DNA of 64,000 nt. Source: Escherichia phage mobillu. Made by a program: the position numbers and the translations under genes. Under the pieces are notes generated by a model. The model searched no databases and was not told where the DNA came from. It saw only the letters and a program-made list of their open reading frames with translations. This document shows, in pieces, positions 15,653 to 61,433 of the stretch. The first letter of the stretch is position 1. Every line of letters begins with the position of its first letter. The stretch lies in sequence record MN850622.1; one strand, written 5' to 3'.

Positions 15653-15823
15653 ATGCAAGTTAAATTGTTATACCGTTTATTAAAAAGTGGCGAACACGAT
15701 TGGTATGTGTTGATTAAAACTGAACCAAATTTTTTCTCCGGACGACCATTTACGGTTCGACCAACTAAACGTCAGCTTCGCAAAGCGAAACGCACGCATC
15801 GCAACTTTTATAGAGGATATTGA
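15653..15823 (+). CDS. hypothetical basic small protein
   Basis: ORF 15626..15823, start placed at ATG 15653 after GGAAGAG. Confidence 0.4.
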   Translation: MQVKLLYRLLKSGEHDWYVLIKTEPNFFSGRPFTVRPTKRQLRKAKRTHRNFYRGY

Positions 15824-15824
15824 T

Positions 15825-16250
15825 ATGAATATTTCTGACACACGTGGTAAGTGGTTCAAGATTGTTAAAGATGACGAAGAACTCCAAGATAAGTTTCCTG
15901 AATTAAAGAAAGATACAATCATCAAGGTAATTGGTACTACGACCGAAGATGGTTATGGCGACCATGGCATTATTGAAGTGATGTTGAACACTGGTGAGAA
16001 ACTTTGCATCTATGACCGTGATACTTCTCTTTGGTGCTTCTGGGAATCACATTCAATAGATGAACTCGAAGAAATTGATTCGGCTGATATTGCGGATGTG
16101 CTAGGTAGTAAACTTGGTGAATTCGAAGGTGAACGAATTTCTTATGCATTAGCTAAATTAGCCGGACAAGAAAATAACGACGGCTATGAAGGTAACCTGA
16201 TGCAAGCAGCCGCAGAATACATTGAATATTTAGAAAGACGTTTAAGTTAA
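15825..16250 (+). CDS. hypothetical acidic protein (position of T4 pin)
   Basis: ORF 141 aa between nrdC and gene 49; no motif recognised. Confidence 0.55.
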   Translation: MNISDTRGKWFKIVKDDEELQDKFPELKKDTIIKVIGTTTEDGYGDHGIIEVMLNTGEKLCIYDRDTSLWCFWESHSIDELEEIDSADIADVLGSKLGEFEGERISYALAKLAGQENNDGYEGNLMQAAAEYIEYLERRLS

Positions 16251-22135: not shown

Positions 22136-22401
22136 AATTAACTCGAATCAGTATAACTGAAGAAAAGCTGGGCGAATTTTATGTTGACGAATACATGAAA
22201 GTCACGTATTTTCCATTCGTTAAAGGTGTTGGTTTTTGGGAAACTCATGTATCTCAATTAAACGAAGGCGACTATAACGAAACACATGAGAACTTTTTAG
22301 ATTTTCTTTATAATGCCGGTCTTACTGAGCTTTATATCGATATCCATGAGTTCAAACGTTTAATGGAAAAAGTGTTTCAGGCTTATTGTTTGCTCCGATA
22401 G
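22132..22401 (+). CDS. hypothetical protein
   Basis: ORF 89 aa, ATGA overlap. Confidence 0.5.
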   Translation: MKLTRISITEEKLGEFYVDEYMKVTYFPFVKGVGFWETHVSQLNEGDYNETHENFLDFLYNAGLTELYIDIHEFKRLMEKVFQAYCLLR

Positions 22402-22409
22402 TATCTCGT

Positions 22410-22452
22410 GCTTTAAGATAGGTCTCTAAATATTATGATATAATAGACCTAT
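22410..22452 (+). promoter_or_regulatory. candidate promoter with inverted repeat upstream of gene 55
   Basis: GCTTTAA, TATAAT 22439-22444; inverted repeat AGGTCT/AGACCT. Confidence 0.4.
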
Positions 22453-22473
22453 GAATTGAGCCAAGAGGTACTT

Positions 22474-23031
22474 ATGACTGAACAAAAACCTAAAAATAAC
22501 TATGTGAATAATAAAGAGCTTCTCGCCGCTATAATCGAGTGGAAAAAGGAGCTCTTAAATAATAAAGACCCAAACAAAATTATTCGTCAGAATGATACCA
22601 TCGGTTTAGCAATTATGCTTATCGCCGAAGGCCTGTCCAAACGTTTCAACTTTTCAGGATATACCCAGTCTTGGAAGCAGGAGATGATTGCAGATGGGAT
22701 TGAAGCCTCTATTAAGGGACTTCATAATTTCGACGAAACTAAGTACAATAACCCACATGCATACATAACTCGAGCTTGTTTTAATGCTTTTGTCCAACGT
22801 ATCAAAAAAGAACGTAAGGAAGTTGCAAAGAAATATAGTTACTTCGTTCATAATGTCTACGACAGTCATGACGATGATATGGTAGCGTTGGTAGATGAAA
22901 CGTTTATTCAAGACATCTACGATAAAATGACGCATTATGAAGAATCCGCTTATAAAGCTCCTGGGGCTGAAAAGAAGGAAGTTGTTAGCGATTCGCCTAG
23001 TTTGGATTTTTTATATGAGGATGACAATTGA
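22474..23031 (+). CDS. 55: late-transcription sigma factor gp55
   Basis: 185 aa from ATG 22474; ..[13 protein letters not shown]...[53 protein letters not shown] matches T4 gp55 as I recall it. Confidence 0.9.
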
Positions 23032-23230
23032 CATCTCTAACTACTTAGAAGAACCTTTTGACGAAGCAATCCCTTATTTGGTAAAACTGTTGGGTCGAGA
23101 ATTTAAAATTAATTTTGACATCGACCCTTTGAACCCACATGACGTGTCATTTTCGATAAATGGGACCCCAGTTGAATATGAGTTCTGTATTGAAGAGGAT
23201 GGGCGTTTTTATTTTAATTTAATGAGATAA
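23021..23230 (+). CDS. hypothetical small protein
   Basis: ORF 22937..23230, start placed at ATG 23021 (or 23015), overlapping gene 55 end. Confidence 0.4.
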
Positions 23231-23231
23231 T

Positions 23232-23555
23232 ATGACTACCGAGATTATTGAAAATAAAGAAGCAGAAGATGCAGTAGCTAAAATGCTACAAGAAATCCAA
23301 AAGAAAAATGAAGCTGAAGCACGTAAAAAATCTGAAAAGATTCTTAAAAAGAATCGTTTTGAACTAAACCGTCTTTATGCTCATGCTCAAGAAGCAGCAA
23401 TTCAAAACAACTTCGAAGCTTATGAATATGCTATTAAGAAATCTCGGGATATTCTACGACAACCATATAATGACAAGTTAATTAAAATCCAGTGGATTAC
23501 TACTCGTCAGGCTATTGAGGACATCATTAATGGCGCTAGTTCAAACAAAGTTTAA
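23232..23555 (+). CDS. hypothetical protein (coiled-coil, Lys/Glu-rich)
   Basis: ORF 107 aa. Confidence 0.5.
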   Translation: MTTEIIENKEAEDAVAKMLQEIQKKNEAEARKKSEKILKKNRFELNRLYAHAQEAAIQNNFEAYEYAIKKSRDILRQPYNDKLIKIQWITTRQAIEDIINGASSNKV

Positions 23556-23736
23556 ACGTCTGAAGCTGAACGCAGGGTTCACCATTAAATTGGGTGGTCC
23601 TCTTTGTGTTAAAATTTCCGAAAAGGAATATCACGACGGTTCTATTACAGAAATTTGTCCGCCTATTGTAAAGGCAGACCCAAAACAACTCGTGTGGGTT
23701 GATTCATTCCAAGTTAAGAAATGGTGGAAACGATGA
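23530..23736 (+). CDS. hypothetical small protein
   Basis: ORF 23515..23736, start placed at ATG 23530. Confidence 0.35.
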   Translation: MALVQTKFKRLKLNAGFTIKLGGPLCVKISEKEYHDGSITEICPPIVKADPKQLVWVDSFQVKKWWKR

Positions 23737-23775
23737 GAGAAATCGATTTAGGCATTTTCTGAGAGGTGCTTATGC

Positions 23776-23949
23776 ATGACGAACATCCCGACTTCTGAAA
23801 ATTTTGATAAAATCCGTAAAGGCAAAGCAGAAAGAATGAGACGTTTTAAAGAGTCTTATGATAAAGCTAAAGCCGAAGGAACTATTACGTACAAGCCCAT
23901 TCGATTTAAAAGTTCAAATGAGCCTCTGTACGGTGTACTATGTGGATAG
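23776..23949 (+). CDS. hypothetical basic small protein (57 aa)
   Basis: ATG 23776 with GAGAGG upstream; ends immediately before the terminator; below ORF-track cutoff. Confidence 0.4.
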   Translation: MTNIPTSENFDKIRKGKAERMRRFKESYDKAKAEGTITYKPIRFKSSNEPLYGVLCG

Positions 23950-23972
23950 GAACTCTTCGGAGTTCCTTTTTT
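23949..23972 (+). terminator. rho-independent terminator
   Basis: GGAACTC-TTCG-GAGTTCC followed by TTTTTT. Confidence 0.7.
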
Positions 23973-24018
23973 GCTTTATAAACGGATGATAGAATGAATT
24001 AACTAATGAGGAAATAAT

Positions 24019-25038
24019 ATGAAAATTTTGCACTTAGGCGACTTCCATATCGGAGTCAAACAAGACGACCCATGGGTTCAAGATATTCAACGTGATGGTA
24101 TTCAACAAGCAATTGAATACTCTAAGAAACACGGGATTAAAACTTGGATTCAGTACGGTGATTGGTTTGACGTCCGTAAAGCAATAACACATCGTACAAT
24201 GGAATTCAATCGTGAAATCGTTGATATGATTTCTAAAGCAGGCATTCACGTTCATGTCACGATAGGAAACCATGACATGGCGTTTAAGAATACAATAACA
24301 CCTAACACTGTTTCTGAATTGTTAACTCAATTTGAAAACTTTACTATTTACGAACATCCAACTACTGTAGATTTTGACGGATGTCTGATTGATATCGTTC
24401 CATGGATGTGTGAAGAAAATACAGGTGAAATCTTAGAGCACATCAAGACTTCTTCCGCCGCGTATTGTGTTGGGCACTGGGAATTAAATGGCTTTTATTT
24501 CTATAAAGGAATGAAGTCTCATGGGCTTGAACCTGATTTCTTAAAGACCTATAAACAAGTCTGGTCTGGCCACTTCCACACAATCTCTGAAGCTGCTAAC
24601 GTCAAATATATTGGGACACCATGGACCCTTACTGCAGGCGATGAGAACGACCCGCGCGGATTCTGGGTATTTGACACTGATGTTGAACGTATGGAATTTA
24701 TTCCTAATGAAACAACATGGCATCGACGAATCACTTATCCGTTTAAAGGCAAAATTAATTATTCTGATTATACTAATCTAGCCGTACGTGTTATAGTATC
24801 AGAAATTGATTCAGAGTTGACTAAGTTTGAATCTGAACTTGAAAAAGTAGTTCACTCTCTTCGTATGGTTTCTAAAGTTGATAACAGTGTTGAATCTGAT
24901 GACGACCAGGAAATCGAGATTAAATCACTTCAAGATATCATTAAAGAATATATTGACGCGATTCCAGATATCTCAGACGAAGACAGAGAAGCGCTGGTCA
25001 AATATTCCAACGAACTTTATATTGAGGCAACACAATGA
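24019..25038 (+). CDS. 47: recombination nuclease subunit gp47 (Mre11-like)
   Basis: 339 aa; phosphoesterase motifs LHLGDFH, GDWFD, GNHD, GHWE, GHFH; matches T4 gp47 as I recall it. Confidence 0.9.
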   Translation: MKILHLGDFHIGVKQDDPWVQDIQRDGIQQAIEYSKKHGIKTWIQYGDWFDVRKAITHRTMEFNREIVDMISKAGIHVHVTIGNHDMAFKNTITPNTVSELLTQFENFTIYEHPTTVDFDGCLIDIVPWMCEENTGEILEHIKTSSAAYCVGHWELNGFYFYKGMKSHGLEPDFLKTYKQVWSGHFHTISEAANVKYIGTPWTLTAGDENDPRGFWVFDTDVERMEFIPNETTWHRRITYPFKGKINYSDYTNLAVRVIVSEIDSELTKFESELEKVVHSLRMVSKVDNSVESDDDQEIEIKSLQDIIKEYIDAIPDISDEDREALVKYSNELYIEATQ

Positions 25039-25292
25039 CTTTAGATGAATTTAACAATGCTGGTCTCAGGCTTGAAGTTGAAATGGACGTTAAAGACGAT
25101 GATGGATTCGAGGACACTATCAAGTATTGGATTGAGCCATTACGCGTTGAAGGCAATGAAGTTAAAGCAGTTCATGTCTGCACCGACTGGGCTATTGAAT
25201 TTAGCTTTAATATAATGGACAACGATACTCCCGGCTCTATTCTTAAAATGGCTGAAGCGTGTATTGAGGATGCGTATAATGACGAAGACTGA
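25035..25292 (+). CDS. hypothetical acidic protein
   Basis: ORF 85 aa, ATGA overlap with gene 47. Confidence 0.5.
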   Translation: MTLDEFNNAGLRLEVEMDVKDDDGFEDTIKYWIEPLRVEGNEVKAVHVCTDWAIEFSFNIMDNDTPGSILKMAEACIEDAYNDED

Positions 25293-25518
25293 TTATGAAA
25301 TCCATCGTCATGAATTTAGTATTGGTGACGGTTATATTGGTATCGTTGAATGGACTGAGAATTACGAGGAATCAACTCCTCGTTTCTTTGGAACAATGTA
25401 TGTTACCTGTGAGTACGCACCAGGTGTTGTTATGTATGCAGAACTAGATGAATATTTTGCTGATAGAGATGGCATGTTAAAATATGTAGAGGACTTCATT
25501 CGAAGAGAATACATATGA
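25279..25518 (+). CDS. hypothetical protein
   Basis: ORF 25264..25518 begins with TTG in the track; ATG 25279 (or 25270) preferred. Confidence 0.45.
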   Translation: MTKTDYEIHRHEFSIGDGYIGIVEWTENYEESTPRFFGTMYVTCEYAPGVVMYAELDEYFADRDGMLKYVEDFIRREYI

Positions 25519-27203
25519 AATCATTTAAATTAAATCGTGTTCGTTATCAAAACATCATGTCTGTAGGTGGGAATCCTATTGATATCCAATTAGATAAAGT
25601 CCAAAAGACCTTAATCACCGGTAAAAATGGCGGTGGTAAATCTACGATGTTAGAAGCCATTACTTTCGGACTTTTCGGTAAACCATTTCGTGATGTTAAG
25701 AAAGGACAAATCATTAATAGCACGAACAAGAAAGAGCTCTTAGTTGAGCTTTGGATGGAATTCGATGATAAAAAATACTTCATTAAACGTGGCCAAAAGC
25801 CCAATATTTTCGAAATCTCCGTTGACGGTGTTCGTCTCGATGAATCTGCCAGCAGTCGTGACTTCCAAGAAGAATTTGAACGTAGCATCGGAATGTCATA
25901 CGCGTCTTTTAAACAGATCGTTGTGCTTGGGACGGCAGGGTATACCCCTTTCATGGCTCTTAGCACCCCTGCTCGTAGAAAACTTGTCGAAGACCTTTTA
26001 GAAGTCGGCACACTCGCTGAAATGGATAAAATCAATAAGTCTCAAGTTCGAGAACTTAATTCCCAGGGACAAGTTCTCGATGCCAAGAAAGATGGTATTA
26101 TCCAACAAATTAAGATTTATAACGAGAATATCGAACGTCAAAAGAAATTATCTGGTGATAATGTAGCGCGTCTACAGAATATGTATGACGACCTAGCCAA
26201 AGAAGCTCGTTCATTAAAAGCAGAAATCGAAGAAGCTAATGAGCGACTACTTAATATCGTTCTTGATGAAGACCCTACTGAGGCATTCAACAAGATAGGA
26301 CAAGAAGCATTCTTGATTAAATCTAAAATCGACTCATATAACAAAGTTATTAAGATGTATCATGATGGCGGTACATGTCCTACTTGTGCATCACAGTTGC
26401 ACCAGGGTGATCCTATTGTCTCTAAGATTACCGATAAGCTTCATGAATGTAATCACTCATTCGAGCAACTTACATGTCACAGAGATAATCTGAGTGTCCT
26501 AGTGGACGAATATAGAGCTAATGTTAAGACTAAACAGGACCTTGCATCTGATATTCGTACCAAGAAACAAGCAATGATTGCCACTATTGATAAAGCTAAG
26601 AAAGTTAAAGCTGCAATAGAGCAAGCCTCAGCAGAATTTATCGACCATGCCGATGAGATAGCTTTGCTTCAAAAAGAACTTGATAAAATCATTAAAACAA
26701 AATCAGATATCGTTCTTGAAAAATACCATCGTGGTATTATCACAGATATGTTAAAAGATTCTGGTATTAAAGGTGCTATCATTAAAAAATATGTGCCTCT
26801 GTTCAACAAGCAGATTAACCATTATCTTAAAATCATGGAAGCTGATTACGTGTTTTCTATTGACGAAGAATTCAATGAATCTATAAAATCACGTGGTCGT
26901 GAAGATTTTAGTTATGCTTCATTTAGTCAAGGTGAAAAGGCACGTATCGATATCGCATTGTTGTTTACATGGCGAGATATTGCTGAAAAGGTCTCTGGTG
27001 TTAAAATCAACACTCTGATTCTTGATGAGGTTTTTGATGGTGCTGTTGATTCTGAGGCTGTTAAGGCTATAGATACCATTCTTGGAAGTTTACAAAATAC
27101 TAATGTGTTCATTATCTCTCATCGAGACCATGACCCTCAACGTTATGGACAACATCTTCAAATGAGCAAAGTTGGACGATTTACGGTAATGACTGTTTCA
27201 TAA
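25515..27203 (+). CDS. 46: recombination nuclease subunit gp46 (Rad50/SbcC-like ATPase)
   Basis: 562 aa; Walker A GKNGGGKST, central coiled coil with CPTC zinc hook, signature FSQGEKARI, Walker B LILDEVFD. Confidence 0.9.
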   Translation: MKSFKLNRVRYQNIMSVGGNPIDIQLDKVQKTLITGKNGGGKSTMLEAITFGLFGKPFRDVKKGQIINSTNKKELLVELWMEFDDKKYFIKRGQKPNIFEISVDGVRLDESASSRDFQEEFERSIGMSYASFKQIVVLGTAGYTPFMALSTPARRKLVEDLLEVGTLAEMDKINKSQVRELNSQGQVLDAKKDGIIQQIKIYNENIERQKKLSGDNVARLQNMYDDLAKEARSLKAEIEEANERLLNIVLDEDPTEAFNKIGQEAFLIKSKIDSYNKVIKMYHDGGTCPTCASQLHQGDPIVSKITDKLHECNHSFEQLTCHRDNLSVLVDEYRANVKTKQDLASDIRTKKQAMIATIDKAKKVKAAIEQASAEFIDHADEIALLQKELDKIIKTKSDIVLEKYHRGIITDMLKDSGIKGAIIKKYVPLFNKQINHYLKIMEADYVFSIDEEFNESIKSRGREDFSYASFSQGEKARIDIALLFTWRDIAEKVSGVKINTLILDEVFDGAVDSEAVKAIDTILGSLQNTNVFIISHRDHDPQRYGQHLQMSKVGRFTVMTVS

Positions 27204-30659: not shown

Positions 30660-33371
30660 ATGAAAGAATTTTACTTAACGGTTGAACAGATTGGTGATTC
30701 AATTTTTGAACGTTACATCGATTCTAATGGCCGTGAACGTACTCGCGAAGTAGAATATAAACCATCACTGTTTGCTCATTGTCCAGAAAGTCAGGCTACG
30801 AAATATTTCGATATCTACGGTAAGCCGTGTACTCGTAAATTGTTCGCTAATATGCGTGATGCCTCCCAATGGATTAAACGCATGGAAGATATCGGACTTG
30901 AAGCACTTGGCATGGACGATTTCAAATTGGCGTATTTGTCTGACACTTATAACTATGAAATCAAATACGACCATACAAAAATTCGTGTGGCTAACTTCGA
31001 CATCGAAGTAACATCTCCGGACGGGTTCCCTGAGCCGTCACAAGCAAAACATCCGATTGATGCTATCACCCATTATGACTCAATTGACGACAGGTTCTAC
31101 GTATTTGATCTATTGAATTCTCCATATGGTAATGTGGAAGAATGGTCTATCGAAATTGCGGCTAAGCTTCAAGAACAAGGCGGTGATGAAGTTCCATCCG
31201 AAATTATCGATAAAATCATTTATATGCCGTTTGATAATGAAAAAGAATTATTGATGGAATATCTCAACTTCTGGCAACAGAAAACTCCTGTCATTTTGAC
31301 TGGATGGAACGTTGAGTCATTTGATATTCCATATGTGTATAACCGAATCAAGAATATTTTTGGCGAATCTACTGCGAAACGTTTATCGCCACATCGTAAA
31401 ACTCGTGTTAAAGTTATCGAAAACATGTATGGTTCTCGTGAAATCATTACATTGTTCGGTATCTCTGTTCTTGATTACATTGACCTTTACAAAAAATTCT
31501 CTTTTACCAATCAACCGTCGTATTCTCTGGATTACATTTCAGAATTTGAATTGAACGTTGGTAAACTGAAATATGACGGCCCTATTTCTAAGCTTCGTGA
31601 AAGCAATCACCAACGATATATTTCTTATAACATTATCGACGTGTATCGTGTATTGCAAATTGATTCTAAGCGTCAGTTCATCAACTTGAGCTTGGACATG
31701 GGTTATTATGCTAAAATTCAGATTCAATCTGTGTTTAGCCCAATTAAAACATGGGATGCTATTATTTTTAATAGCCTTAAAGAGCAGAACAAGGTGATTC
31801 CACAAGGTCGTTCTCACCCGGTTCAACCTTATCCTGGCGCTTTTGTTAAGGAACCTATTCCAAATCGATACAAATATGTAATGAGTTTCGACCTTACATC
31901 TCTGTATCCAAGTATTATTCGCCAAGTGAATATTAGCCCTGAAACAATAGCAGGAACGTTTAAAGTAGCTCCACTGCATGATTATATTAACGCAATCGCT
32001 GAACGTCCTTCAGATGTGTACAGTTGTTCTCCTAACGGCATGATGTATTATAAAGACCGTGATGGTGTAGTTCCAACTGAAATCACTAAGGTCTTTAATC
32101 AACGTAAAGAACATAAAGGTTATATGCTTGCAGCTCAACGTAATGGTGAAATAATTAAAGAGGCATTGCATAATCCTAATCTTTCTGTTGACGAACCATT
32201 AGATGTTGATTATCGTTTTGACTTCACTGACGAGATTAAAGAAAAGATTAAAAAGTTGTCTGCTAAATCTCTTAATGAAATGTTGTTTAGAGCTCAACGT
32301 ACTGAAGTTGCAGGTATGACTGCACAAATTAACCGTAAATTGCTTATCAACTCACTTTATGGTGCACTTGGCAACGTTTGGTTCCGTTATTATGATTTGC
32401 GTAATGCTACTGCAATCACAACATTCGGGCAAATGGCTTTACAGTGGATTGAACGTAAAGTTAATGAATATCTGAATGAAGTTTGTGGTACAGAAGGTGA
32501 AGCTTTCGTTCTTTATGGTGATACAGACTCTATTTACGTATCTGCTGATAAAATTATCGATAAGGTTGGTGAATCTAAATTCCGCGATACTAACCATTGG
32601 GTAGACTTCTTAGATAAGTTTGCACGTGAACGTATGGAACCAGCTATTGATAGAGGTTTCCGTGAAATGTGTGAATACATGAACAATAAACAACACTTAA
32701 TGTTCATGGACCGAGAAGCTATCGCTGGTCCTCCGCTCGGTTCTAAAGGTATTGGTGGATTCTGGACTGGCAAGAAACGTTATGCATTAAACGTGTGGGA
32801 TATGGAAGGCACTCGTTACGCCGAGCCTAAACTCAAAATCATGGGTCTAGAGACTCAGAAATCTTCGACCCCTAAAGCAGTACAGAAAGCTCTTAAAGAA
32901 TGTATTCGTCGTATGCTTCAAGAAGGTGAAGAATCATTACAAGAATATTTTAAAGAGTTTGAAAAAGAATTCCGTCAATTGAATTATATTAGCATCGCGT
33001 CGGTATCTTCTGCGAATAACATTGCTAAATATGACGTAGGTGGATTCCCGGGTCCTAAATGCCCGTTCCATATTCGTGGAATTCTGACGTATAACCGAGC
33101 TATCAAAGGTAATATTGATGCACCACAAGTTGTAGAAGGTGAAAAAGTATATGTTCTGCCTTTACGTGAAGGAAACCCATTCGGTGATAAATGTATCGCA
33201 TGGCCTTCTGGTACTGAAATCACAGATTTAATTAAAGACGATGTACTTCATTGGATGGACTACACTGTTCTCCTTGAGAAGACATTTATTAAACCGCTTG
33301 AAGGATTCACATCAGCAGCTAAACTCGATTACGAGAAGAAAGCATCTCTGTTCGATATGTTTGATTTTTGA
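30660..33371 (+). CDS. 43: DNA polymerase (family B) gp43
   Basis: 903 aa; exonuclease motif FDIEV, polymerase motifs DxxSLYPS, KxxxNSLYG, YGDTDS; N-terminus matches the RB69-type polymerase as I recall it. Confidence 0.97.
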   Translation: MKEFYLTVEQIGDSIFERYIDSNGRERTREVEYKPSLFAHCPESQATKYFDIYGKPCTRKLFANMRDASQWIKRMEDIGLEALGMDDFKLAYLSDTYNYEIKYDHTKIRVANFDIEVTSPDGFPEPSQAKHPIDAITHYDSIDDRFYVFDLLNSPYGNVEEWSIEIAAKLQEQGGDEVPSEIIDKIIYMPFDNEKELLMEYLNFWQQKTPVILTGWNVESFDIPYVYNRIKNIFGESTAKRLSPHRKTRVKVIENMYGSREIITLFGISVLDYIDLYKKFSFTNQPSYSLDYISEFELNVGKLKYDGPISKLRESNHQRYISYNIIDVYRVLQIDSKRQFINLSLDMGYYAKIQIQSVFSPIKTWDAIIFNSLKEQNKVIPQGRSHPVQPYPGAFVKEPIPNRYKYVMSFDLTSLYPSIIRQVNISPETIAGTFKVAPLHDYINAIAERPSDVYSCSPNGMMYYKDRDGVVPTEITKVFNQRKEHKGYMLAAQRNGEIIKEALHNPNLSVDEPLDVDYRFDFTDEIKEKIKKLSAKSLNEMLFRAQRTEVAGMTAQINRKLLINSLYGALGNVWFRYYDLRNATAITTFGQMALQWIERKVNEYLNEVCGTEGEAFVLYGDTDSIYVSADKIIDKVGESKFRDTNHWVDFLDKFARERMEPAIDRGFREMCEYMNNKQHLMFMDREAIAGPPLGSKGIGGFWTGKKRYALNVWDMEGTRYAEPKLKIMGLETQKSSTPKAVQKALKECIRRMLQEGEESLQEYFKEFEKEFRQLNYISIASVSSANNIAKYDVGGFPGPKCPFHIRGILTYNRAIKGNIDAPQVVEGEKVYVLPLREGNPFGDKCIAWPSGTEITDLIKDDVLHWMDYTVLLEKTFIKPLEGFTSAAKLDYEKKASLFDMFDF

Positions 33372-33411: not shown

Positions 33412-34047
33412 ATGAAAACTACACCAATCACTATCGCTATTGACGCAATCGTAAAACAAGCTTCATCTCTTGCCACTATGGCTAAAGTAATTAGTCAAAA
33501 CCCTGCTCGGTATAATGCTATTCTTGAAACTCTTCGTCGCCCTGGACTGAGTAATTATGAAAGTCGTGTAATTATTACAGGTGTTGGTAAGAACGCTAAT
33601 ATCGCAACTAAAGCTTCCGAGACTTTTGCTTCACTAGGTATTCCTAGCATGTATTTGAACACTGGGCATTATTCTCATGGTGACGCAGGATTTATTGCAC
33701 CTAATGATGTATTAGTTCACATCAGCCGTTCTGGTAAGACTGAAGAAATGATAGGTGTTGCTAAACATCTTCGTATGATTCGTCCTCAGGTTAAACAGAT
33801 TCTGTTACATTGTAACCCTGACATTCCACAAGAATACGAAGCCCTTTTTGATTACTCTTTCTGTACAGGCATCGCGGTAGAGGTTGATGAGAATTCTCTG
33901 GCTCCGACCATGTCCACTACATTGTTGTTAGCGCTTATCGATACGTTTGCTATCAACCTTTCGTCTGAACGTGGATTTACCTCTAATGATTTCCTTAAGT
34001 TCCATCCAGGCGGTGCACTAGGTGCCATGTTACGAGGCGAACAATGA
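33412..34047 (+). CDS. SIS-domain sugar-phosphate isomerase (GmhA/KdsD-like)
   Basis: 211 aa; SIS signature VIITGVGKNANIA...HISRSGKTEE; single-domain size similar to phosphoheptose isomerase. Confidence 0.75.
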   Translation: MKTTPITIAIDAIVKQASSLATMAKVISQNPARYNAILETLRRPGLSNYESRVIITGVGKNANIATKASETFASLGIPSMYLNTGHYSHGDAGFIAPNDVLVHISRSGKTEEMIGVAKHLRMIRPQVKQILLHCNPDIPQEYEALFDYSFCTGIAVEVDENSLAPTMSTTLLLALIDTFAINLSSERGFTSNDFLKFHPGGALGAMLRGEQ

Positions 34048-34187
34048 AAGCAATAACAATAGGACTTTTACTATTGATGCTTGTCATGACTATCTACTGG
34101 AGCTTAACGGCTCCGGTAATGATTCCAACACTTGTAATTGGATGGATTATGATTGGTCTACAGGCAAAGTATGAATGCTTTAACTAG
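34044..34187 (+). CDS. hypothetical small membrane protein (47 aa)
   Basis: ATGA coupling with SIS gene stop; two hydrophobic segments; below ORF-track cutoff. Confidence 0.4.
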   Translation: MKAITIGLLLLMLVMTIYWSLTAPVMIPTLVIGWIMIGLQAKYECFN

Positions 34188-34228
34188 AATAGTGTACAAT
34201 ACTCCTACTTACCAATGAGGACTTCAAC

Positions 34229-35914
34229 ATGAAAAAAGCTGTTATTCTTGGTGCTGGATTGGCAACTCGTTTGTATCCAATAACGCATCATATTCCTAAG
34301 GTGCTTGTTAACTATAAACAAGACACTATTCTGAGCAATTTGTATACAATTTATTCTGACCTTGGCGCAGATGAAATTATTGTAGTAGTTCATTCAAAAT
34401 TTGCTGAAACTGTTCGAGCTTATTGTGAGCAAGAAGGGTTCAATGTGACTATTCGTACAGTTGATGAAGCGTATGGTTCTGCTTATGCTCTTGCTAAATT
34501 ACACAAAGATTTAGACGGCCATAATGTAATTGTTAACTGGTGTGATATTATTCCCGATTTTGGTTCATGGTCTTGGAATGTTAACGCAATCTATGTTAAG
34601 GGTGACGAATGTCGATATAATTTCGACGGTGAAAATATCACTAACGTAGGTTCAACAGGTGGTAATGTTGTAGGAATTTATCAGTTCAAAGACTGGGAAT
34701 TCTATATGGGTTCTACTGATGAGGAAATTCATGAATACTGCAAAGGACGTGATTTCGTAGAATTCCTTTACGGCAGCGCATTCAATAAATCAGAGCTTAT
34801 GAATATAATTGATTTAGGTGATATGCCTAAACTTGAAAAGGCTCATGAAGTTCGTGAACTTAATCGTAGTTTTAATGCAGTTGAAATTGGTGAAGAAACT
34901 GTAACTAAATTCGCATTAACCGAACAGGGACGAGCTCTTCAGAAAGATGAGATTTCGTGGTATTTGAAAGTGAAATCAGATTCAGTTCCTCAGTTAGTTT
35001 CTGTTAATGAAAATAACTTTGAAATGGAACGCATTAAAGGTAAGCCGGCATTTGAATATATTAAATCAAAATCAAGTCTTGCTCGTCCACAAATTATTGA
35101 TGCAATTTTAGATGCACTGAAATTCAGCACAGACACTTATTTTGTAAGTCCTGAAACTGTTCGTCGTGATTTCACTAAAGAATTCTATACGAAAGTTATT
35201 GATCGTTGTGAAAGCATTCAACCATTGATTGATTCATTTGGTAAAATCACACATGTGAACTACACTAAGATTGGACGTCTGAAGCCAATGCTGAAACAAG
35301 CTTTAGAACACCTTATTCGTTATCATAACCGTTCTCAGGGACAGTACTCTGTTATTCATGGTGACCCGAACTTCAGTAATACTATGATTACTGATAACGG
35401 CGAAGTCAAGTTTATCGACCCTCGTGGATATTTTGGCGAAACCAAGATTTACGGGCCAAAATTGTATGATGAAGCTAAAGTGCTTTATGCTGTTTCAGGT
35501 TATGATGAATTCAATGCTAATCCGACCTGGGGACAGTTTACTATTGATGAAACAACTTGTAATGTGACTATTAACATCAATCCATTAGTTTACAAATATG
35601 GAAAGATGAGTTCGTTTAACGAGTATCATCATTTGGCTGTAGCAATTATCTGGATTGCATTAGGTGGTTATTTCAAGAATAATCCACTTAAAGCGGTAGC
35701 CGCATATTATAAAGGTATGGAACTTCTGACTAAGCAATTACGTAACATGGGCCGTGTACTTCAAGACGGCTCTATTAGTTATGACGTAGCAGAACCTGTA
35801 ACGGCTACTCTGATTACAAAAAATCCTGGTAAATGGGTACTAACTGATAAAGAAACTGGTGTTTCCTATCGTCCAATCGGTGGCGATATCACTCATCAAT
35901 GGGAACGAATCTAA
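34229..35914 (+). CDS. bifunctional sugar-1-phosphate nucleotidyltransferase / sugar kinase (APH-choline kinase fold)
   Basis: 561 aa; N-terminal NTP-transferase signature AVILGAGLATRLYPIT..PK; C-terminal kinase motifs VIHGDPNFSNTMI and FIDPRGYFGE. Confidence 0.75.
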   Translation: MKKAVILGAGLATRLYPITHHIPKVLVNYKQDTILSNLYTIYSDLGADEIIVVVHSKFAETVRAYCEQEGFNVTIRTVDEAYGSAYALAKLHKDLDGHNVIVNWCDIIPDFGSWSWNVNAIYVKGDECRYNFDGENITNVGSTGGNVVGIYQFKDWEFYMGSTDEEIHEYCKGRDFVEFLYGSAFNKSELMNIIDLGDMPKLEKAHEVRELNRSFNAVEIGEETVTKFALTEQGRALQKDEISWYLKVKSDSVPQLVSVNENNFEMERIKGKPAFEYIKSKSSLARPQIIDAILDALKFSTDTYFVSPETVRRDFTKEFYTKVIDRCESIQPLIDSFGKITHVNYTKIGRLKPMLKQALEHLIRYHNRSQGQYSVIHGDPNFSNTMITDNGEVKFIDPRGYFGETKIYGPKLYDEAKVLYAVSGYDEFNANPTWGQFTIDETTCNVTININPLVYKYGKMSSFNEYHHLAVAIIWIALGGYFKNNPLKAVAAYYKGMELLTKQLRNMGRVLQDGSISYDVAEPVTATLITKNPGKWVLTDKETGVSYRPIGGDITHQWERI

Positions 35915-36300
35915 TGCACCGTGTAGAAAACATGCTTAATCTTTGTTTTGATGTCGATGATTGTATAACAGAGTGGAATAACAATCGTGATTACGTGAAC
36001 TTCAAACCAGACGTCGAAATGGTGTCTGCCATTAATGCCCTGTATGATGCAGGGCATACCATAACGCTTTACACTGCTCGCGGTATGAAGTCAGTAGGTC
36101 CTGGTCGTATAGCAATTGACATTCTCCCAAGTCTGATTCAGAACTTGGCAAACATTGGCTTGAAGTACCATAATTTGCTAACACATAAACCAGTATATGA
36201 TTGGATTATCGACGACAAAGCTATGCGTCCTGACGAATTCAAAGCTCTTATGAATAAAGGCGAATTCGAAACATTTAAATCATATAAACCAAATCTATAA
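35914..36300 (+). CDS. HAD-superfamily phosphatase
   Basis: 128 aa from ATG 35914 (TAATG coupling); HAD motif I FDVDDCIT near N-terminus; C-terminal WIIDDKA. Confidence 0.65.
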   Translation: MHRVENMLNLCFDVDDCITEWNNNRDYVNFKPDVEMVSAINALYDAGHTITLYTARGMKSVGPGRIAIDILPSLIQNLANIGLKYHNLLTHKPVYDWIIDDKAMRPDEFKALMNKGEFETFKSYKPNL

Positions 36301-36357
36301 TAATTTAAGTAAGACCTGCAAAAACCATCGCATCAATTAACGTGAGATGCAAAAAAA

Positions 36358-37518
36358 ATGAATACTTTTAAAATCGGAACGAATTTTGATTTAGCTCTTC
36401 TTGATAAAATCGTAGAGCTCAATAAAACTTATCCTAATAGCTTGATAAACGAAGTATACGGCTCTACAAGAGAAATGGCTTTTGTAGCAGCCAGACCTGA
36501 TTTTAGGCTTCCTGACGTTGACAAAAAGATGTTAGAAGATTACGTTAAACGTTGTAACGAATTAGGTATTTGCTTTAACTATACACTCAACACGATAAAT
36601 CCTGGTTCAAAAAGAGAACTAGTTGAGTGGAAGAAGAAAGCTATTCAGGATTATGTTCAGTATCTTTGGTCAATAGGCGTATGGCGTATTACTATCGCTA
36701 ACCCTGTTGTTATGGAAATTGTTCGTGAAGTCAATAAAGACATTGAGATTGAAGTTTCAACAATTCTACATGTCGATGCTGTAACTCAAATCAAATACTT
36801 GCATGACCAGTATAATATCAAAAAGGTCTGCTGTGGAATTCATAAGAACCGTTCAGTTTCTTTCCTGAAGCGTGCAGCAGAGTTTTGCAATAAGAACAAT
36901 ATAATATTTGAAGTTCTTGTAAATGAGTTCTGTTCTAATGCTGGTAAAGGGTATACAACACATTGTAGCTATCGTGACTCTTGCTATATTTTCCATAGTA
37001 CTGATGTTACAGCTGATGATGCTAAATCCTTAAACGGATATCCTATGCAGCACTGTATTAAAGCTCGTGATACAGACCCATTTAACTGGTTGAGAACTCG
37101 TTTTGTTCGTCCTCAAGATTTGAAACTTTATAATGATATTGGTATCACTCAATTCAAAGTTTCAGGACGTACAGGTAGCACAGACTACATTTTGAAAGTT
37201 CTTGAAGCATACGCTTCTGAAAAGTTTGAAGGTAATTTGTTAGAACTGTGGAAGCCTTTAGAGACTATTTTCACTCTTGAAAATGAGACCGAGTTTTCAC
37301 ATACGGTAAATATTGAAACCTCTTTGTTAGATGGCTTTTTAGAAAAAAGGTGGTTCAGACATCCAGATTTCGATTGTGCTAATGAAATCTGCGGGACGAC
37401 GTGTACATATTGTGAAAGATATTATAAACGTCAGTTATCTAAAAATGGGTTATCAGAAAATTCTATATCTATTATTGATATAACTAACTCTGATGACGCT
37501 TTGAGGTACCCAGAATGA
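36358..37518 (+). CDS. U32-family-like Cys-rich protein (tentative)
   Basis: 386 aa; layout YTLNTIN ... EVSTILHV ... IFEVLVNEFCSNAGKGYTTHCSY resembles U32 (PrtC/RlhA/UbiU) family; C-terminal cluster C-x4-C-x4-C-x2-C. Confidence 0.55.
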   Translation: MNTFKIGTNFDLALLDKIVELNKTYPNSLINEVYGSTREMAFVAARPDFRLPDVDKKMLEDYVKRCNELGICFNYTLNTINPGSKRELVEWKKKAIQDYVQYLWSIGVWRITIANPVVMEIVREVNKDIEIEVSTILHVDAVTQIKYLHDQYNIKKVCCGIHKNRSVSFLKRAAEFCNKNNIIFEVLVNEFCSNAGKGYTTHCSYRDSCYIFHSTDVTADDAKSLNGYPMQHCIKARDTDPFNWLRTRFVRPQDLKLYNDIGITQFKVSGRTGSTDYILKVLEAYASEKFEGNLLELWKPLETIFTLENETEFSHTVNIETSLLDGFLEKRWFRHPDFDCANEICGTTCTYCERYYKRQLSKNGLSENSISIIDITNSDDALRYPE

Positions 37519-37796: not shown

Positions 37797-38513
37797 ATGG
37801 GAAAACATAACACAATGAAATATATCAAAGCCGCAGATTTTCAAACCGCATTTAAAGCAGTCAATCGTGAAATTTTAGAAAACCCGGAATTCGTAACTGA
37901 TTCTCGTATTGGACGTTGTAATGAAATTGGGTCTATGACAGTAGTTGTTGACACTCCATCATCATTCAAAATGACCGACCCACGTATTAACCGCATCTCT
38001 TATGAATACGCCGAAGATTTCTGGAAGTTTATGATTTCTGGTGGTACCAACGCAGAAGAAGCGTTTAAGGCATATCCTAATGTCGCTAAATTTATTTCTA
38101 AACCAAAATCAGATGTTTTGCCGGCGAACTTCAACACTTTCTACGGTCCTCGCATTGCGGCCCAATTACCAGCTCTTCTAAAAGAACTTAAAGAGAAGCC
38201 TAACTCCCGAAGAGTTGTGTTCCAAATTCTAGAAAGTTCTGATCAGGCTTTGCTTGATTCAGACGAAACGCTTGAATATCCATGTACTGACTCAGTGACT
38301 TATTATATTCGTGATGGTAAGCTTTATACCCACTGTCATATGCGTTCTCAGAACTGTGCTGTTGTTATGCAGTTGGATTTTTATCTCCAAGGAAAATTAC
38401 TTCATTATATCGCTAACGAATGTGGTGTAGAAGTTGGTGATTATACTCATACCATGGTAAGTGCCCATGTGTTTGAACGTGATTTTGATTATGTTAAAGG
38501 ATTCCTTGACTAA
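37797..38513 (+). CDS. 42: dCMP hydroxymethylase gp42 (thymidylate synthase family)
   Basis: 238 aa; PCTDSVTYYIRD ... HMRSQN segments correspond to T4 gp42 active-site region as I recall it. Confidence 0.8.
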   Translation: MGKHNTMKYIKAADFQTAFKAVNREILENPEFVTDSRIGRCNEIGSMTVVVDTPSSFKMTDPRINRISYEYAEDFWKFMISGGTNAEEAFKAYPNVAKFISKPKSDVLPANFNTFYGPRIAAQLPALLKELKEKPNSRRVVFQILESSDQALLDSDETLEYPCTDSVTYYIRDGKLYTHCHMRSQNCAVVMQLDFYLQGKLLHYIANECGVEVGDYTHTMVSAHVFERDFDYVKGFLD

Positions 38514-39412
38514 TGGCTATTTTCCGCGTACCAATCTTGAGTATGCGGTCTTATGAAACTGGACAGTATGCTATCCTTAAGGATGGCAACTTCCAACTTC
38601 ATTTGCACCGTGCTAATCCAGGTGATGTGATTACATATCCACGTAATGCATCTGATATTAAAGAATGCGAACGTCTTTTCCCAGAATTTAAGTTTGTTCC
38701 ATTATGGTATAAAGATAACGCGTATAACACTCGTAAATATTTCTGGTCTGAAAATGAATTTGTGGTTGATTCATTAATTGCTTATTATGATTGTGATTTT
38801 CTAATCACAGATATCACCGGATATGACGGTGCTTTTGATGTAGAATTCAATTTCAATATCACTGCAGACCCTAATAAACCACGTTTTTATATTGACGAAT
38901 TCTTAAAAACCGACATGTTGTCGGTTAATCGTTCACTTCAAACTACTGTGTTGAACGAACGTCAAAAAGAAGTGCTGGTTAACGCAGGTGCAGATGGTAA
39001 TAAGATTATCGTAACGCAGAAAGTTATACGTCCTTCCATCATGCAGCGTCTTGTAGGTGATTTGGCTCCTATTCATCTAGATGGTATTTTTCATCCATTT
39101 CGAATTAGCGACCCGTGCTATCGTTTTGAACAAGTGGTTGAATGTGCAATTCAATTAGGCCAACCGCTTTATATAACCGATCCAAATAATAGCTTCGACA
39201 GAAATAAGTATCCTGAAGAAGCGCTGATTCGAATTTTTAAACCAACTAAAACTGAGTACTATCAAATTCTTAAAGGACGTCCGAAAATTCAATATTTCGA
39301 AAATCCTGAAGAAGTATTCCATCCAGGTCTTGGTGAGTTCATCTACTTTAATGCTTTAATTTCTTCGCCGTATAATATACCTAAATATGAAGATGTCGTA
39401 ATCGAGGAATAA
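38513..39412 (+). CDS. hypothetical protein occupying the beta-glucosyltransferase locus
   Basis: 299 aa; no similarity to T4 beta-gt recognised; TAATG coupling with gene 42. Confidence 0.6.
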   Translation: MAIFRVPILSMRSYETGQYAILKDGNFQLHLHRANPGDVITYPRNASDIKECERLFPEFKFVPLWYKDNAYNTRKYFWSENEFVVDSLIAYYDCDFLITDITGYDGAFDVEFNFNITADPNKPRFYIDEFLKTDMLSVNRSLQTTVLNERQKEVLVNAGADGNKIIVTQKVIRPSIMQRLVGDLAPIHLDGIFHPFRISDPCYRFEQVVECAIQLGQPLYITDPNNSFDRNKYPEEALIRIFKPTKTEYYQILKGRPKIQYFENPEEVFHPGLGEFIYFNALISSPYNIPKYEDVVIEE

Positions 39413-39413
39413 A

Positions 39414-39962
39414 ATGGCTAAAATTATTTTAGTAGATGGCCCAGATAATGCTGGTAAAACAACTTTCATTAATGACATAATGGAAATTAGTGAAAGATAT
39501 GTAAAGATTGATTTCCCTAAACGAACAGTTGATGGGCGTTTCGATGTTAAGTCTCGAAATGAAGTTGGCTGCTTCGAAACGATGTTGAATTATTTAGACC
39601 CTACTAAGATTTATCTGTTAGACCGTGGATATATTAGTAACTGGGTTTATGGACGTATTCGACAAGATGCGGACTCGGTTCTTGACGTTTATGAACAGGA
39701 TTATGTTCGTCTTTGCCAAAACCATGATGTGTTCACAATTATTTTAACACGTAACGAAATGACTGAAAGTTTTGAAGACGACCTTATTACTTTGTCTTCA
39801 TTCGGTTTTAATACAGTCATTTCACATTTTGAAGAGTTTGCAATTCATAACAAAATCCAAACGTATCAATTACTTAATCATGATGGTGCTAACAAAGTTA
39901 TAGGATTTAATGCAAGCGAACGTAATTATTTGATTACAGAAATTATCAAATGGGCTCGTTAA
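39414..39962 (+). CDS. P-loop nucleoside/nucleotide kinase-like protein
   Basis: 182 aa; Walker A VDGPDNAGKTT; LDRGYIS resembling dNK/TMK family. Confidence 0.65.
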   Translation: MAKIILVDGPDNAGKTTFINDIMEISERYVKIDFPKRTVDGRFDVKSRNEVGCFETMLNYLDPTKIYLLDRGYISNWVYGRIRQDADSVLDVYEQDYVRLCQNHDVFTIILTRNEMTESFEDDLITLSSFGFNTVISHFEEFAIHNKIQTYQLLNHDGANKVIGFNASERNYLITEIIKWAR

Positions 39963-60332: not shown

Positions 60333-61433
60333 ATGAAAGTTATGTTTATCCCATCTCGCGCAGTCCCATTTAACCCAGAACGTGTACAAGGTGGTCTTGA
60401 AGCAGTACATTTAAATGTGTTGAAATATCTTGTGTCCATCGGTGCTGATATTGATTATATCGGCTTTGATAATGACACGTTTGGTGACTGGAAGGTTAAT
60501 CATCATCCTGTTGGTCATCTGACTAAATTCAGTCTAGGTATGAGTTATACTATGGCTCGTAAGATTGTTGAACTAGCCGGCATTAATGAGTACGATTTCG
60601 TTGTTACAATGGAACCGACCAAACTAACCGTTCAGGCAATTAAAGACGCAGGTCTCTCTAAAGTTCATAAGAATTTTATGGCAACACCATTTGAACCAGT
60701 ATCTCGTGGCATTGTTCAAATTTGGGACCAGACTATTCAAATTCATAAGAACGGTGGTAAGAGTTATGCTCCTACTAAAGCCTTCCGTGAATTTGAACGC
60801 AAATATTGTTATATGACTTCAGGTCTGACTGACAAAATTGATTATGATTATTGGCGAGCAAATCCGTTGTTTGAAGCCGAAGATTATCCGGTTATTTGTT
60901 TGAATGATAAACCTGAAGTTCTTCCGGCGACTGATCTGATTATTAGTGCACAACGTTATGACACTAAAATGCGTCGTACTGATGTTGCTCTTGAAGCGAT
61001 TAAAGCACTAGGCGAAAATGGTGCAGGATACTGTCCTAGTAAATGGGCACCACCAGCTAAATATCCTGTTATTATTGATGCTCCACACAGTGAAATCATG
61101 GAACGTCTTAAAATGGCTAAAGCACTTATTAATACGTGTCCTGACACAGGTACGGTAGAGAATAGTTCTATTGAAGCCATCTCTAAAGGTGTCCCTGTAA
61201 TCCAGTTAGTTTTTAAGGATTATCCTCATGCGACATTCGAATACGACCCGGATACTGTGCGTGTAGAAATTGATTCCTCTACTCCTAAGAAAGAAGTAGT
61301 TGCGCTTTACACAAAAGCTGTATTAGAATTCACTGACACATACGAAGCTCGAGTTAAACGTGCTGAAGCAGTATGGAAGAAATATAATCGAGATGCAGTT
61401 GTTGCGATGTGGGATAAAATCTTCACAGCGTAA
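60333..61433 (+). CDS. GT-B fold glycosyltransferase (GT4-like); candidate DNA (hmC) sugar transferase
   Basis: 366 aa; N-terminal MKVMFIPSRA..GGLEAVHLNVLKYL and C-terminal ENSSIEAISKGVPVI resemble GT4 signature regions. Confidence 0.65.
   Translation: MKVMFIPSRAVPFNPERVQGGLEAVHLNVLKYLVSIGADIDYIGFDNDTFGDWKVNHHPVGHLTKFSLGMSYTMARKIVELAGINEYDFVVTMEPTKLTVQAIKDAGLSKVHKNFMATPFEPVSRGIVQIWDQTIQIHKNGGKSYAPTKAFREFERKYCYMTSGLTDKIDYDYWRANPLFEAEDYPVICLNDKPEVLPATDLIISAQRYDTKMRRTDVALEAIKALGENGAGYCPSKWAPPAKYPVIIDAPHSEIMERLKMAKALINTCPDTGTVENSSIEAISKGVPVIQLVFKDYPHATFEYDPDTVRVEIDSSTPKKEVVALYTKAVLEFTDTYEARVKRAEAVWKKYNRDAVVAMWDKIFTA

Follow-up and report, generated by a model that had tools for sequence, protein, structure and literature searches.

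Conservation of the a-gt.5 to a-gt.2 genes, without a-gt, between genes 55 and 47 of an RB69-like T-even phage

We analysed the interval between gene 55 and gene 47 (positions 23032-24018) in a 64,000-nucleotide stretch of Escherichia phage mobillu (sequence record MN850622.1), which is called the window throughout. In T4 this is the place of a-gt, the gene for a DNA alpha-glucosyltransferase, and the T4 record indeed carries a 400-aa (amino acid) a-gt between genes 55 and 47, as an earlier interpretation made from the letters of the window (the sequence-only reading) had stated. Based on tblastn searches with the T4 proteins and on scans for terminators and promoters, the following features were found at the locus, including the two bordering genes.

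22474..23031, + strand: gene 55, late-transcription sigma factor, the left border (90.7% identity to T4 gp55 over 182 aa)
23015 or 23021..23230, + strand: a-gt.5 ortholog, DUF5491 (46.6% to T4 a-gt.5 over its full length, E=1e-14)
23232..23555, + strand: a-gt.4 ortholog, DUF2654, 107 aa (57.7% to T4 a-gt.4, E=4e-32)
23530..23736, + strand: a-gt.3 ortholog, 68 aa (70.8% to T4 a-gt.3, E=2e-29)
23776..23949, + strand: a-gt.2 ortholog, DUF5486, 57 aa (75.9% to T4 a-gt.2, E=3e-24)
23948..23972, + strand: intrinsic-terminator-like hairpin from the consensus scan, with an 8-bp stem, UUCG loop and six T
23969..23995, + strand: predicted MotA-dependent middle promoter of gene 47, ortholog of T4 P47, from its consensus match
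24019..25038, + strand: gene 47, SbcD/Mre11-like recombination nuclease subunit, the right border (75.8% to T4 gp47 over 339 aa)

The 987 bp between the gene 55 stop and the gene 47 start hold four tightly packed open reading frames (ORFs) on the + strand in an operon-like arrangement, in agreement with the sequence-only reading, which had seen only ORFs of 57-107 aa and no a-gt here. Read from the ATG at 23015 the a-gt.5 ortholog has 71 aa, and from that at 23021 it has 69 aa; its start overlaps the end of gene 55, a gene that is labelled as such also in the records of vB_EcoM_NBG1 (NBG1), mar005P1 and RB69. The start of a-gt.4 lies one base past the a-gt.5 stop codon, a-gt.3 overlaps the a-gt.4 end by 26 nt, and the TAG stop codon of a-gt.2 (23947-23949) extends into the stem of the hairpin. 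Pfam families were matched by a-gt.5 (DUF5491, E=5e-13), a-gt.4 (DUF2654, E=1.6e-27) and a-gt.2 (DUF5486, E=4.5e-28) with 49.5, 95.9 and 97.3 bits against Pfam cut-offs of 25-27, and the Pfam scan gave no family for a-gt.3. All four matched a PHROG of the label 'unknown function', namely phrog_1169 (a-gt.5, E=2.5e-23), phrog_951 (a-gt.4, E=6e-37), phrog_1648 (a-gt.3, E=4.9e-34) and phrog_2140 (a-gt.2, E=3e-33). Nonsynonymous differences (pN, 0.16-0.46) were below synonymous ones (pS, 0.46-0.81, with synonymous sites often saturated) in 12 out of 12 ortholog comparisons with T4, JS98 and Mineola, and the dN/dS of a-gt.3 against T4 was 0.08. The four ORFs are thus real, constrained genes, because they match curated families and show pN below pS.

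The gene order in T4 is 55, a-gt.5, a-gt.4, a-gt.3, a-gt.2, mobB, a-gt, 47.1, 47, and RB27 has the same order without mobB. The names a-gt.5 to a-gt.2 are used as well in the records of RB69, mar005P1, SP18, JS98 and Mineola, and the RB69 reference record of 2003 already labels them in that order beside gene 47. In RB69 (NC_004928, RB69p067-p070) the gene order is identical to that of the window and the four small proteins are 94.7-100% identical, with 100% for a-gt.5. Judged by identity and position, the four ORFs of the window are orthologs of T4 a-gt.5, a-gt.4, a-gt.3 and a-gt.2 with their order kept. The T4 region differs in length: gp55, the four a-gt.x proteins and gp47 are orthologous to those of the window at 47-91% identity, but the T4 region is about 2.2 kb longer and contains mobB, a-gt, a second hairpin/promoter module and 47.1. 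No tblastn match to T4 mobB, a-gt or 47.1 was obtained anywhere in the window, and compared with T4 the interval misses only these three genes.

A megablast search with positions 22400-25100 as the query gave 716 phage records, of which 146 align at a single collinear place with 80% or more of the query; every inspected record among these 146 was a Mosigvirus (RB69 group). The best matches were NBG1 and Shigella phage JK42, with 98.9% identity over 100% of the query. The complete window is collinear with NBG1 from position 64098 down to 1, with an identity of 96.7-98.1% except for two small variable spots. In T4 terms it runs from upstream of tk/vs through nrdD, 55, 47, 46, 45, 44, 62, regA, 43 and the gene 42 region, and then uvsX, 41, 61, 56, dda, dexA and 39 to rIIA. 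By these comparisons the source phage is a Mosigvirus, that is, an RB69-like T-even phage. We are highly confident, for the explanation as a whole, that 23032-24018 is the ordinary conserved gene 55-gene 47 region of a Mosigvirus.

The 69-bp spacer between a-gt.2 and gene 47 consists of the hairpin, a T-run, the motif TTTTGCTTTA, 11 nt, TAGAAT, about 12 nt, GAGG and the ATG. The strong terminator that the sequence-only reading had placed at 23949-23972 was recovered exactly there. Its stem GGAACTC/GAGTTCC (23949-23955/23960-23966) is extended by an A23948-T23967 pair and closed by a TTCG loop, the T-run covers 23967-72, and the fold has -13.9 kcal/mol with z = -3.5 to -3.7 compared to dinucleotide shuffles. 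The NBG1 record labels the same site as a terminator. At the orthologous site hairpins fold also in SP18, JS98, RB27/T4 (twice), Mineola (twice), UFV01, one Tegunavirus and one Krischvirus. The ten orthologous hairpins from eight genera range from -10.2 to -17.1 kcal/mol; since they are stable in all cases despite differing stem sequences, the structure is probably selected. The hairpin has the sequence features of a Rho-independent terminator and would end the gene 55/a-gt.x transcription unit. A terminator-like site on the minus strand (23679-23657, inside a-gt.3) was discarded as within chance expectation, and Rfam gave no family anywhere in the window at the gathering threshold.

Overlapping the T-run, the MotA box TTTTGCTTTA (23969-23978) is followed by an 11-nt spacer and the -10 element TAGAAT (23990-23995). 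This matches the published consensus, a MotA box (a/t)(a/t)(a/t)TGCTTtA at 12+/-1 bp from a -10 element TAtaaT (Hinton 2010), and the site at 23969-23995 is the single MotA-box/-10 combination within 22400-24100. No late promoter TATAAATA was found in 22400-24100, and a sigma-70 scan of the + strand was negative over 23950-24018. Transcription is predicted to start at approximately 24001-24002, upstream of the ribosome-binding site GAGG. The NBG1 genome has an annotated MotA; the MotA and AsiA genes lie outside the window.

In T4, middle-promoter starts have been mapped at 38682 for PmobB (Palpha-gt.1) and at 36576 for P47 (Hinton 2010, Table 1), and in a coordinate check the -10 elements of these two modules were located at -11..-6 and -12..-7 of the mapped starts. 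The module of the window aligns collinearly with those of T4 (P47, PmobB), JS98 and SP18, and the same architecture of hairpin plus MotA promoter after a-gt.2 is seen in RB69, SP18, JS98, RB27 and T4. The RB69 spacer is also 69 bp long with the same hairpin and MotA box, but its -10 element is TAAAAT where the window has TAGAAT. T4 and RB27 have a second copy after a-gt, in which the hairpin GGGCTTCGGCCC is followed by AGCTTTATA and TATAAT; both T4 copies share the core GCTTTATA, and in Mineola a hairpin is present on both sides of a-gt. A copy of the module on each side of a-gt is therefore the state of T4, RB27 and Mineola, and a single copy without a-gt that of the window, RB69, JS98 and SP18. 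From this collinearity the window module is predicted to be a single terminator/middle-promoter unit orthologous to T4 P47, which would end the gene 55/a-gt.x unit and start a MotA/AsiA-dependent transcript of genes 47 and 46 at about 24001.

The absence of a-gt from the locus was confirmed in several ways. No ORF near 400 aa is present between genes 55 and 47, and the spacer from the a-gt.2 stop (23949) to the gene 47 start (24019) contains no gene, only the hairpin and the promoter. With T4 a-gt, tblastn against the window gave nothing better than E=2.5, and with the a-gt proteins of T4, RB27 and Mineola the best match had E=0.21 in the window. For a genome-wide search we used the reassembled complete NBG1 genome (168,869 bp) and, as queries, T4 a-gt and the beta-glucosyltransferase b-gt, RB27 a-gt and ba-gt, and Mineola a-gt. 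The best a-gt match in NBG1 (E=0.038) covered 69 aa with 27.5% identity in an unrelated 200-aa ORF; b-gt gave at best E=1.6 in the window and 2.6 in the NBG1 genome, and ba-gt (RB27/T2) at best E=0.85 in the NBG1 genome. A hidden Markov model built from three a-gt sequences had no match below E=0.8 among all 976 stop-to-stop ORFs. In RB69, BlastP likewise gave no a-gt or b-gt match (Thomas 2018). Homologs of a-gt, b-gt and ba-gt are thus absent from the window and from NBG1 at the level of sequence similarity. The sequence-only reading had proposed a search of the complete phage genome with both T4 enzymes; run on NBG1, this search found no homolog. Its wider claim, that the lineage had lost both glucosyltransferases, holds for the absence in both searches and not for the loss, as a gain elsewhere would fit the data too.

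Instead of T4-type glucosylation, the window encodes a set of proteins with 97-100% identity to RB69 gp3, gp45, gp46:47, gp48, gp49, gp50, gp51, gp52:53 and gp55, in the RB69 order. The main features are the following.

33412..37518, + strand: sugar-nucleotide gene cluster, orthologs of RB69 gp55, gp52:53, gp51 and gp50 (97-99.7% identity), made up of the next four entries
33412-34047, + strand: predicted SIS-domain arabinose-5-P isomerase (Pfam SIS)
34229-35914, + strand: predicted NTP-transferase plus kinase, 561 aa (Pfam NTP_transferase)
35899-36300, + strand: putative phosphatase, 133 aa (from the RB69 gp51 ortholog set)
36358-37518, + strand: U32-like protein (Pfam Peptidase_U32)
37797..38513, + strand: thymidylate-synthase-family enzyme, ortholog of RB69 gp48, 5-hydroxy-dCMP synthase (99.2% identity)
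38513..39412, + strand: putative DNA arabinosyltransferase 1, ortholog of RB69 gp46:47, 299 aa (99-100% to RB69 ORF046 and ORF047)
39414..39962, + strand: thymidylate-kinase-like nucleotide kinase, ortholog of RB69 gp45, 182 aa (98.9% identity)
60333..61433, + strand: putative DNA arabinosyltransferase 2 with GT-B fold, ortholog of RB69 ORF003c/gp3, 366 aa (98.6% to ORF003c)

The sugar-nucleotide cluster, the roles of whose genes were proposed by Lee 2026, sits between the positions of genes 43 and 42. The enzyme at 37797-38513 occupies the T4 gene 42 position, matches Pfam Thymidylat_synt (E=2e-15) and is 24.8% identical to T4 gp42; RB69 gp48 has been shown experimentally to make 5-hydroxy-dCMP (5hodCMP) and is a flavin-dependent 5-hydroxy-dCMP synthase (Lee 2026). 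Its counterpart is still called hydroxymethylase or thymidylate synthase in many GenBank records of relatives. The 299-aa protein occupies the T4 b-gt position relative to gene 42 and uvsX and was without a match in the Pfam search; for gp46:47 a glycosyltransferase-like fold and an arabinosyltransferase role have been proposed (Lee 2026), and the kinase role of gp45 is from Table 1 of the same work. The 366-aa gene is located between rIIA.1 and gene 39, and ORF003c has been proposed to be an arabinosyltransferase, not a glucosyltransferase (Thomas 2018; Lee 2026). The proteins of 299 aa (38513-39412) and 561 aa (34229-35914) are each a single ORF in the window, where the RB69 record has the splits ORF046/047 and ORF052/053; this would agree with the published view that these splits are sequencing errors.

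The DNA of RB69 and of Mosigvirus NP carries mono- and poly-arabinosylated 5-hydroxycytosine (Lee 2026 for RB69), a modification that was earlier described for RB69 as arabinosyl-hydroxymethylcytosine (Thomas et al. 2018). We detected no difference at the sequence level between the window and the arabinosyl-5-hydroxycytosine system of RB69/DLP3 (Lee et al. 2026, NAR). By this likeness the phage would make NDP-arabinose, putatively UDP-arabinose, and would carry arabinosylated 5-hydroxycytosine in its DNA. As no hydroxymethylcytosine would be made, a-gt and b-gt would have no substrate, and the T4-type a-gt would be missing because in Mosigviruses the sugar on the DNA is arabinose and not glucose. 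Glycosylation of the DNA was not merely given up in the lineage, which uses another chemistry. A different glycosyltransferase stands at the b-gt position (Lee 2026), and the real functional replacement is the arabinosyl-5-hydroxycytosine pathway, which is already published. That Mosigviruses without a-gt or b-gt make arabinosylated 5-hydroxycytosine was known from the RB69 GenBank record, Thomas 2018 and Lee 2026. The sugar on the cytosine of T-even phages affects the attack by host defences, including type IV restriction enzymes such as GmrSD/BrxU, and also the ease of phage engineering.

The sequence-only reading had described the a-gt locus as replaced by small ORFs. A replacement of a-gt by novel or lineage-specific ORFs might be suggested by the bare fact that the gene 55-gene 47 interval holds small ORFs and lacks one of 400 aa, but in T4 itself these four genes precede mobB/a-gt with their order unchanged. 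Their orthologs are found also in RB27, Mineola, SP18, JS98 and RB69, they belong to curated families (DUF5491, DUF2654, phrog_1648 and DUF5486), and the position of a-gt is in fact empty, with only the terminator/promoter module between a-gt.2 and gene 47. The replacement is refuted by the tblastn results and by the order of the genes in T4; we give it practically no chance, and the a-gt.x genes are conserved neighbours of a-gt, not substitutes for it. A second alternative is that a glucosyltransferase has moved or diverged, so that the 299-aa or the 366-aa protein still glucosylates the DNA. The 299-aa protein lies exactly at the T4 b-gt position, and by profile and fold RB69 ORF003c, a GT-B protein, is distantly related to T4 a-gt (HHpred match to PDB 1XV5 with E=1.9e-24, about 10% identity via phage G gp306; Thomas 2018). 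The homolog elsewhere that the sequence-only reading had named as counter-evidence was not found at the sequence level. Against this, neither candidate resembles a-gt, b-gt or ba-gt at the level of sequence, the His residues through which a-gt contacts glucose are not kept in ORF003c (Thomas 2018), the literature reports arabinose-modified 5-hydroxycytosine and not glucose in the DNA of RB69 and Mosigvirus NP, and the window has no T4-type dCMP hydroxymethylase, its enzyme being only 24.8% identical to gp42. When a-gt (three sequences) or b-gt was aligned with the 366-aa and 299-aa candidates, hhalign gave 0.1-0.2%, and the positive control of a-gt against b-gt failed equally. A retained glucosyltransferase is therefore considered very improbable. 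Some observations weigh against the account of a conserved Mosigvirus locus as a whole: the genome-wide absence of glucosyltransferases rests on NBG1, which is 96.7-98.1% identical across the window, and not on the window's own genome; termination, start site and DNA modification are deduced from the sequence and from relatives; the generic terminator scan was not enriched in the region, with 2 sites found against 1.7 expected; and the four small proteins are without solved relatives, an informative fold match or found literature in the PDB, Foldseek and literature searches. A further one, the close agreement in identity of a-gt and its flanking genes between T4 and Mineola, bears on the direction of change and is taken up below.

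Among the sampled genera a-gt was found only in Tequatrovirus and Jiaodavirus. In the Jiaodavirus Mineola it lies between a-gt.2 and 47 and is 66.8% identical to that of T4. The Dhakavirus JS98 has only 47.1 between a-gt.2 and 47, the Gaprivervirus SP18 has an unannotated 47.1, and Karamvirus (UFV01), Tegunavirus and Krischvirus have only small ORFs in the 55-47 interval; none of these five genera has a-gt here. The commonest arrangement is 55-small ORFs-47, shared by Mosig-, Dhaka-, Gapriver-, Karam-, Teguna- and Krischvirus. A search of the phage collection with T4 a-gt gave 657 records, with a group at 90% identity or more (Tequatrovirus, as the listed matches suggest), a group at about 66% of mainly Klebsiella and Raoultella phages, and a few below 60%. 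The neighbour-joining tree of gp55+gp47+gp46 was ((((Mosig,T4)100,(Dhaka,Gapriver)100)98,(Karam,Jiaoda)68),Teguna),Krisch, on which the presence of a-gt in T4 and Jiaodavirus asks for one gain and three losses or for two gains or transfers. The blocks of the genome do not tell one story. The window proteins gp55, gp47 and gp46 (22474-27203) are closest to T4 at 76-89%, whereas gp43 (30660-33371) and uvsX (40061-41233) are 61.8 and 68.0% identical to T4 and 75 and 73% to SP18; T4 uvsX and gp43 are 81.9 and 75.2% identical to Mineola, the reverse of the gp55/47/46 pattern. These opposed patterns mean that the replication/modification block and the 55-46 block have different histories in a mosaic genome. 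Between T4 and RB27, gp55, a-gt.5, a-gt.4, a-gt.3, 47.1 and gp47 are 98.5-100% identical, against 91.2% for a-gt and 89.5% for a-gt.2, and the a-gt segment thus moves independently of its flanks. Because the genome is mosaic and the cassette moves in this way, parsimony on these sequences would separate the observed absence of a-gt into neither loss nor gain, and absence should not be taken as loss without a proper phylogenetic test.

A true loss, in which the common ancestor of Tequatrovirus and Mosigvirus had a-gt and Mosigvirus deleted it once the switch to 5-hydroxycytosine had removed its substrate, for instance when the two hairpin/MotA modules that flank the cassette and contain GCTTTATA recombined, has several points in its favour. 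The same site between modules of the same type holds a-gt in both Tequatrovirus and Jiaodavirus, which are not sister genera, and the T4-Mineola identity of a-gt (66.8%) is about that of the flanking gp46 (67.0%) and gp47 (70.5%), as would be expected from old vertical inheritance with several losses. Moreover, 47.1 is missing from Mosigvirus at the same joint, as a lineage-specific absence, and kept in T4, RB27, JS98 and SP18, so that the locus did change in the Mosigvirus lineage. Upstream of GCTTTATA the window module is nearer to the left module of T4 (32/39) and downstream nearer to the right one (22/24), but this comparison rests on only about 25-40 aligned bases, and the 'hybrid' module occurs also in JS98 and SP18, together with a single module and no a-gt, and is therefore no pointer to an event specific to Mosigvirus. 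On the gp55+gp47+gp46 tree a loss would have to occur independently at least three times (Mosig; Dhaka+Gapriver; Karam). The 5hodCMP synthase is 79.7% identical between Mosigvirus and Dhakavirus, at or above the core-gene level, and its family is found in 345 phage records, those of Acinetobacter phages with about 69% identity among them; as the enzyme is shared and widespread, 5-hydroxycytosine chemistry looks old in the clade, which supports a gain. We lean slightly towards an empty slot as the original condition of this clade, with a-gt arriving as a cassette in the hydroxymethylcytosine phages and never present in the Mosigvirus lineage since its split from T4, and less towards a deletion in the Mosigvirus lineage; the former we hold to be about an even chance, the latter a possibility somewhat short of that.

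Whichever direction is correct, a-gt would be a single-gene cassette between two modules of hairpin plus MotA promoter in T4-type and Jiaodavirus phages, together with mobB in T4, and the one module at the joint in the window would be the empty slot, with 47.1 also gone. If the two copies recombined, the cassette would be cut out exactly, leaving the left hairpin and the right -10 element and leader, and a single module with a left hairpin and a right -10/leader is what the window, RB69, JS98 and SP18 show. A promoter-gene-terminator unit inserted into a single module would conversely give the T4 state, and the data fit either direction. The divergent patch between T4 and RB27 surrounds the T4 homing-endonuclease gene mobB, which would fit co-conversion during homing or an exchange of the cassette.

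The a-gt site can accordingly be seen as a clean cassette slot bounded by terminator/middle-promoter modules, and this interpretation of the hairpin/P47 module is the sole mildly new angle of our analysis. It recalls the promoter-early stem-loops (PeSLs), composite terminator/promoter motifs that have been proposed to mediate insertions and deletions in T4-like genomes (Arbiol 2010; Comeau 2014): a stem-loop and a promoter between genes are repeated around a variable gene and match differences in presence and absence. In contrast to PeSLs, the promoter in the window is of the MotA-dependent middle type, with a MotA box instead of a -35 hexamer, and not an early sigma-70 promoter; being of the middle class, it falls outside the published PeSL definition. 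The locus also lies among conserved replication and recombination genes and not in a classical hyperplastic region, and recombination at the module is hypothetical. That the module after a-gt.2 is a PeSL-like recombination joint, at which anti-restriction and DNA-modification cassettes (a-gt, mobB, 47.1) are swapped independently of the core genes, is a tentative idea that we consider rather unlikely. If true, the PeSL idea, so far one of early promoters in hyperplastic regions, would apply also to middle promoters within the replication/recombination block, and the joint would offer a concrete route for reshuffling the cytosine-modification repertoires among the Tevenvirinae.

Additionally, we looked for hints to the function of the four small proteins. 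A phmmer search against the PDB sequences gave nothing below E=0.65. The single-sequence AlphaFold2 model of a-gt.4 (predicted local distance difference test score, pLDDT, 76.5) is all-helical with four helices, and by Foldseek it had no significant fold neighbour in the PDB, only matches with E of at least 2.9; the corresponding model of a-gt.3 was unusable (pLDDT 42.8). A literature search by the names a-gt.2 to a-gt.5 and by the DUF names gave one relevant paper, on comparative genomics, and no work on the four proteins themselves. The genes are kept in phages with glucosylated hydroxymethylcytosine (T4, Mineola) as well as in those with arabinosyl-5-hydroxycytosine (RB69 and, by prediction, the phage of the window), and also in SP18, which is without a cytosine-modification enzyme in the gene 43-uvsX interval. 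As they are retained whatever the DNA chemistry, the products of a-gt.5 to a-gt.2 do not serve a-gt as accessory factors, although they are named after it. That the genes lie between gene 55 and the terminator suggests small pre-replicative proteins; in T4 the mapped middle promoter Palpha-gt.4 is located inside a-gt.5 (Hinton 2010, Table 1). It is a low-confidence guess that they are host-takeover factors made early in infection.

In SP18 the gene 43-uvsX interval (23044-24096 of the compared stretch) had no thymidylate-synthase-like dCMP-modifying enzyme and no glycosyltransferase, and tblastn was negative over the first 28.5 kb. This interval holds only imm and two small ORFs, and the gp56 dCTPase is kept.

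T4, RB27 and JS98 (4754-4897 of the compared stretch) have 47.1, which encodes a small membrane protein, and SP18 carries an unannotated copy (MELFLGYVVLFMAF...) at approximately 3862-4003 of the compared stretch. The gene is precisely absent in the window (23996-24018) and in RB69, and the leader that precedes 47.1 in JS98 and SP18 directly precedes gene 47 in the window. In T4 the annotated 47.1 ORF contains the P47 start (36576), which lies 8 nt within it (6577-6585 of the compared T4 stretch); the ATG of 47.1 overlaps the P47 -10 element, and 47.1 is therefore not translatable from the P47 transcript. In Mineola a-gt is annotated from 3447, a position within the hairpin/MotA-box module (3432-3501 of the compared stretch), and similarity to T4 a-gt begins at 3501; the N terminus of this coding sequence is probably annotated too long.

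Finally, two spots differ between the window and NBG1. A segment of about 390 bp between the gene 56 dCTPase and soc (48313-48700) contains two small ORFs, one of 57 aa and one that is labelled 'soc.2' in phage moha; it is missing from NBG1 and about 99% identical in the Mosigviruses moha, p000y and AV110. The other spot (15139-16250) combines an indel at 15139-15388 with a stretch near pin (protease inhibitor) in which the identity to NBG1 is only 88%, and outside this variable region the window and NBG1 are 97-98% identical.

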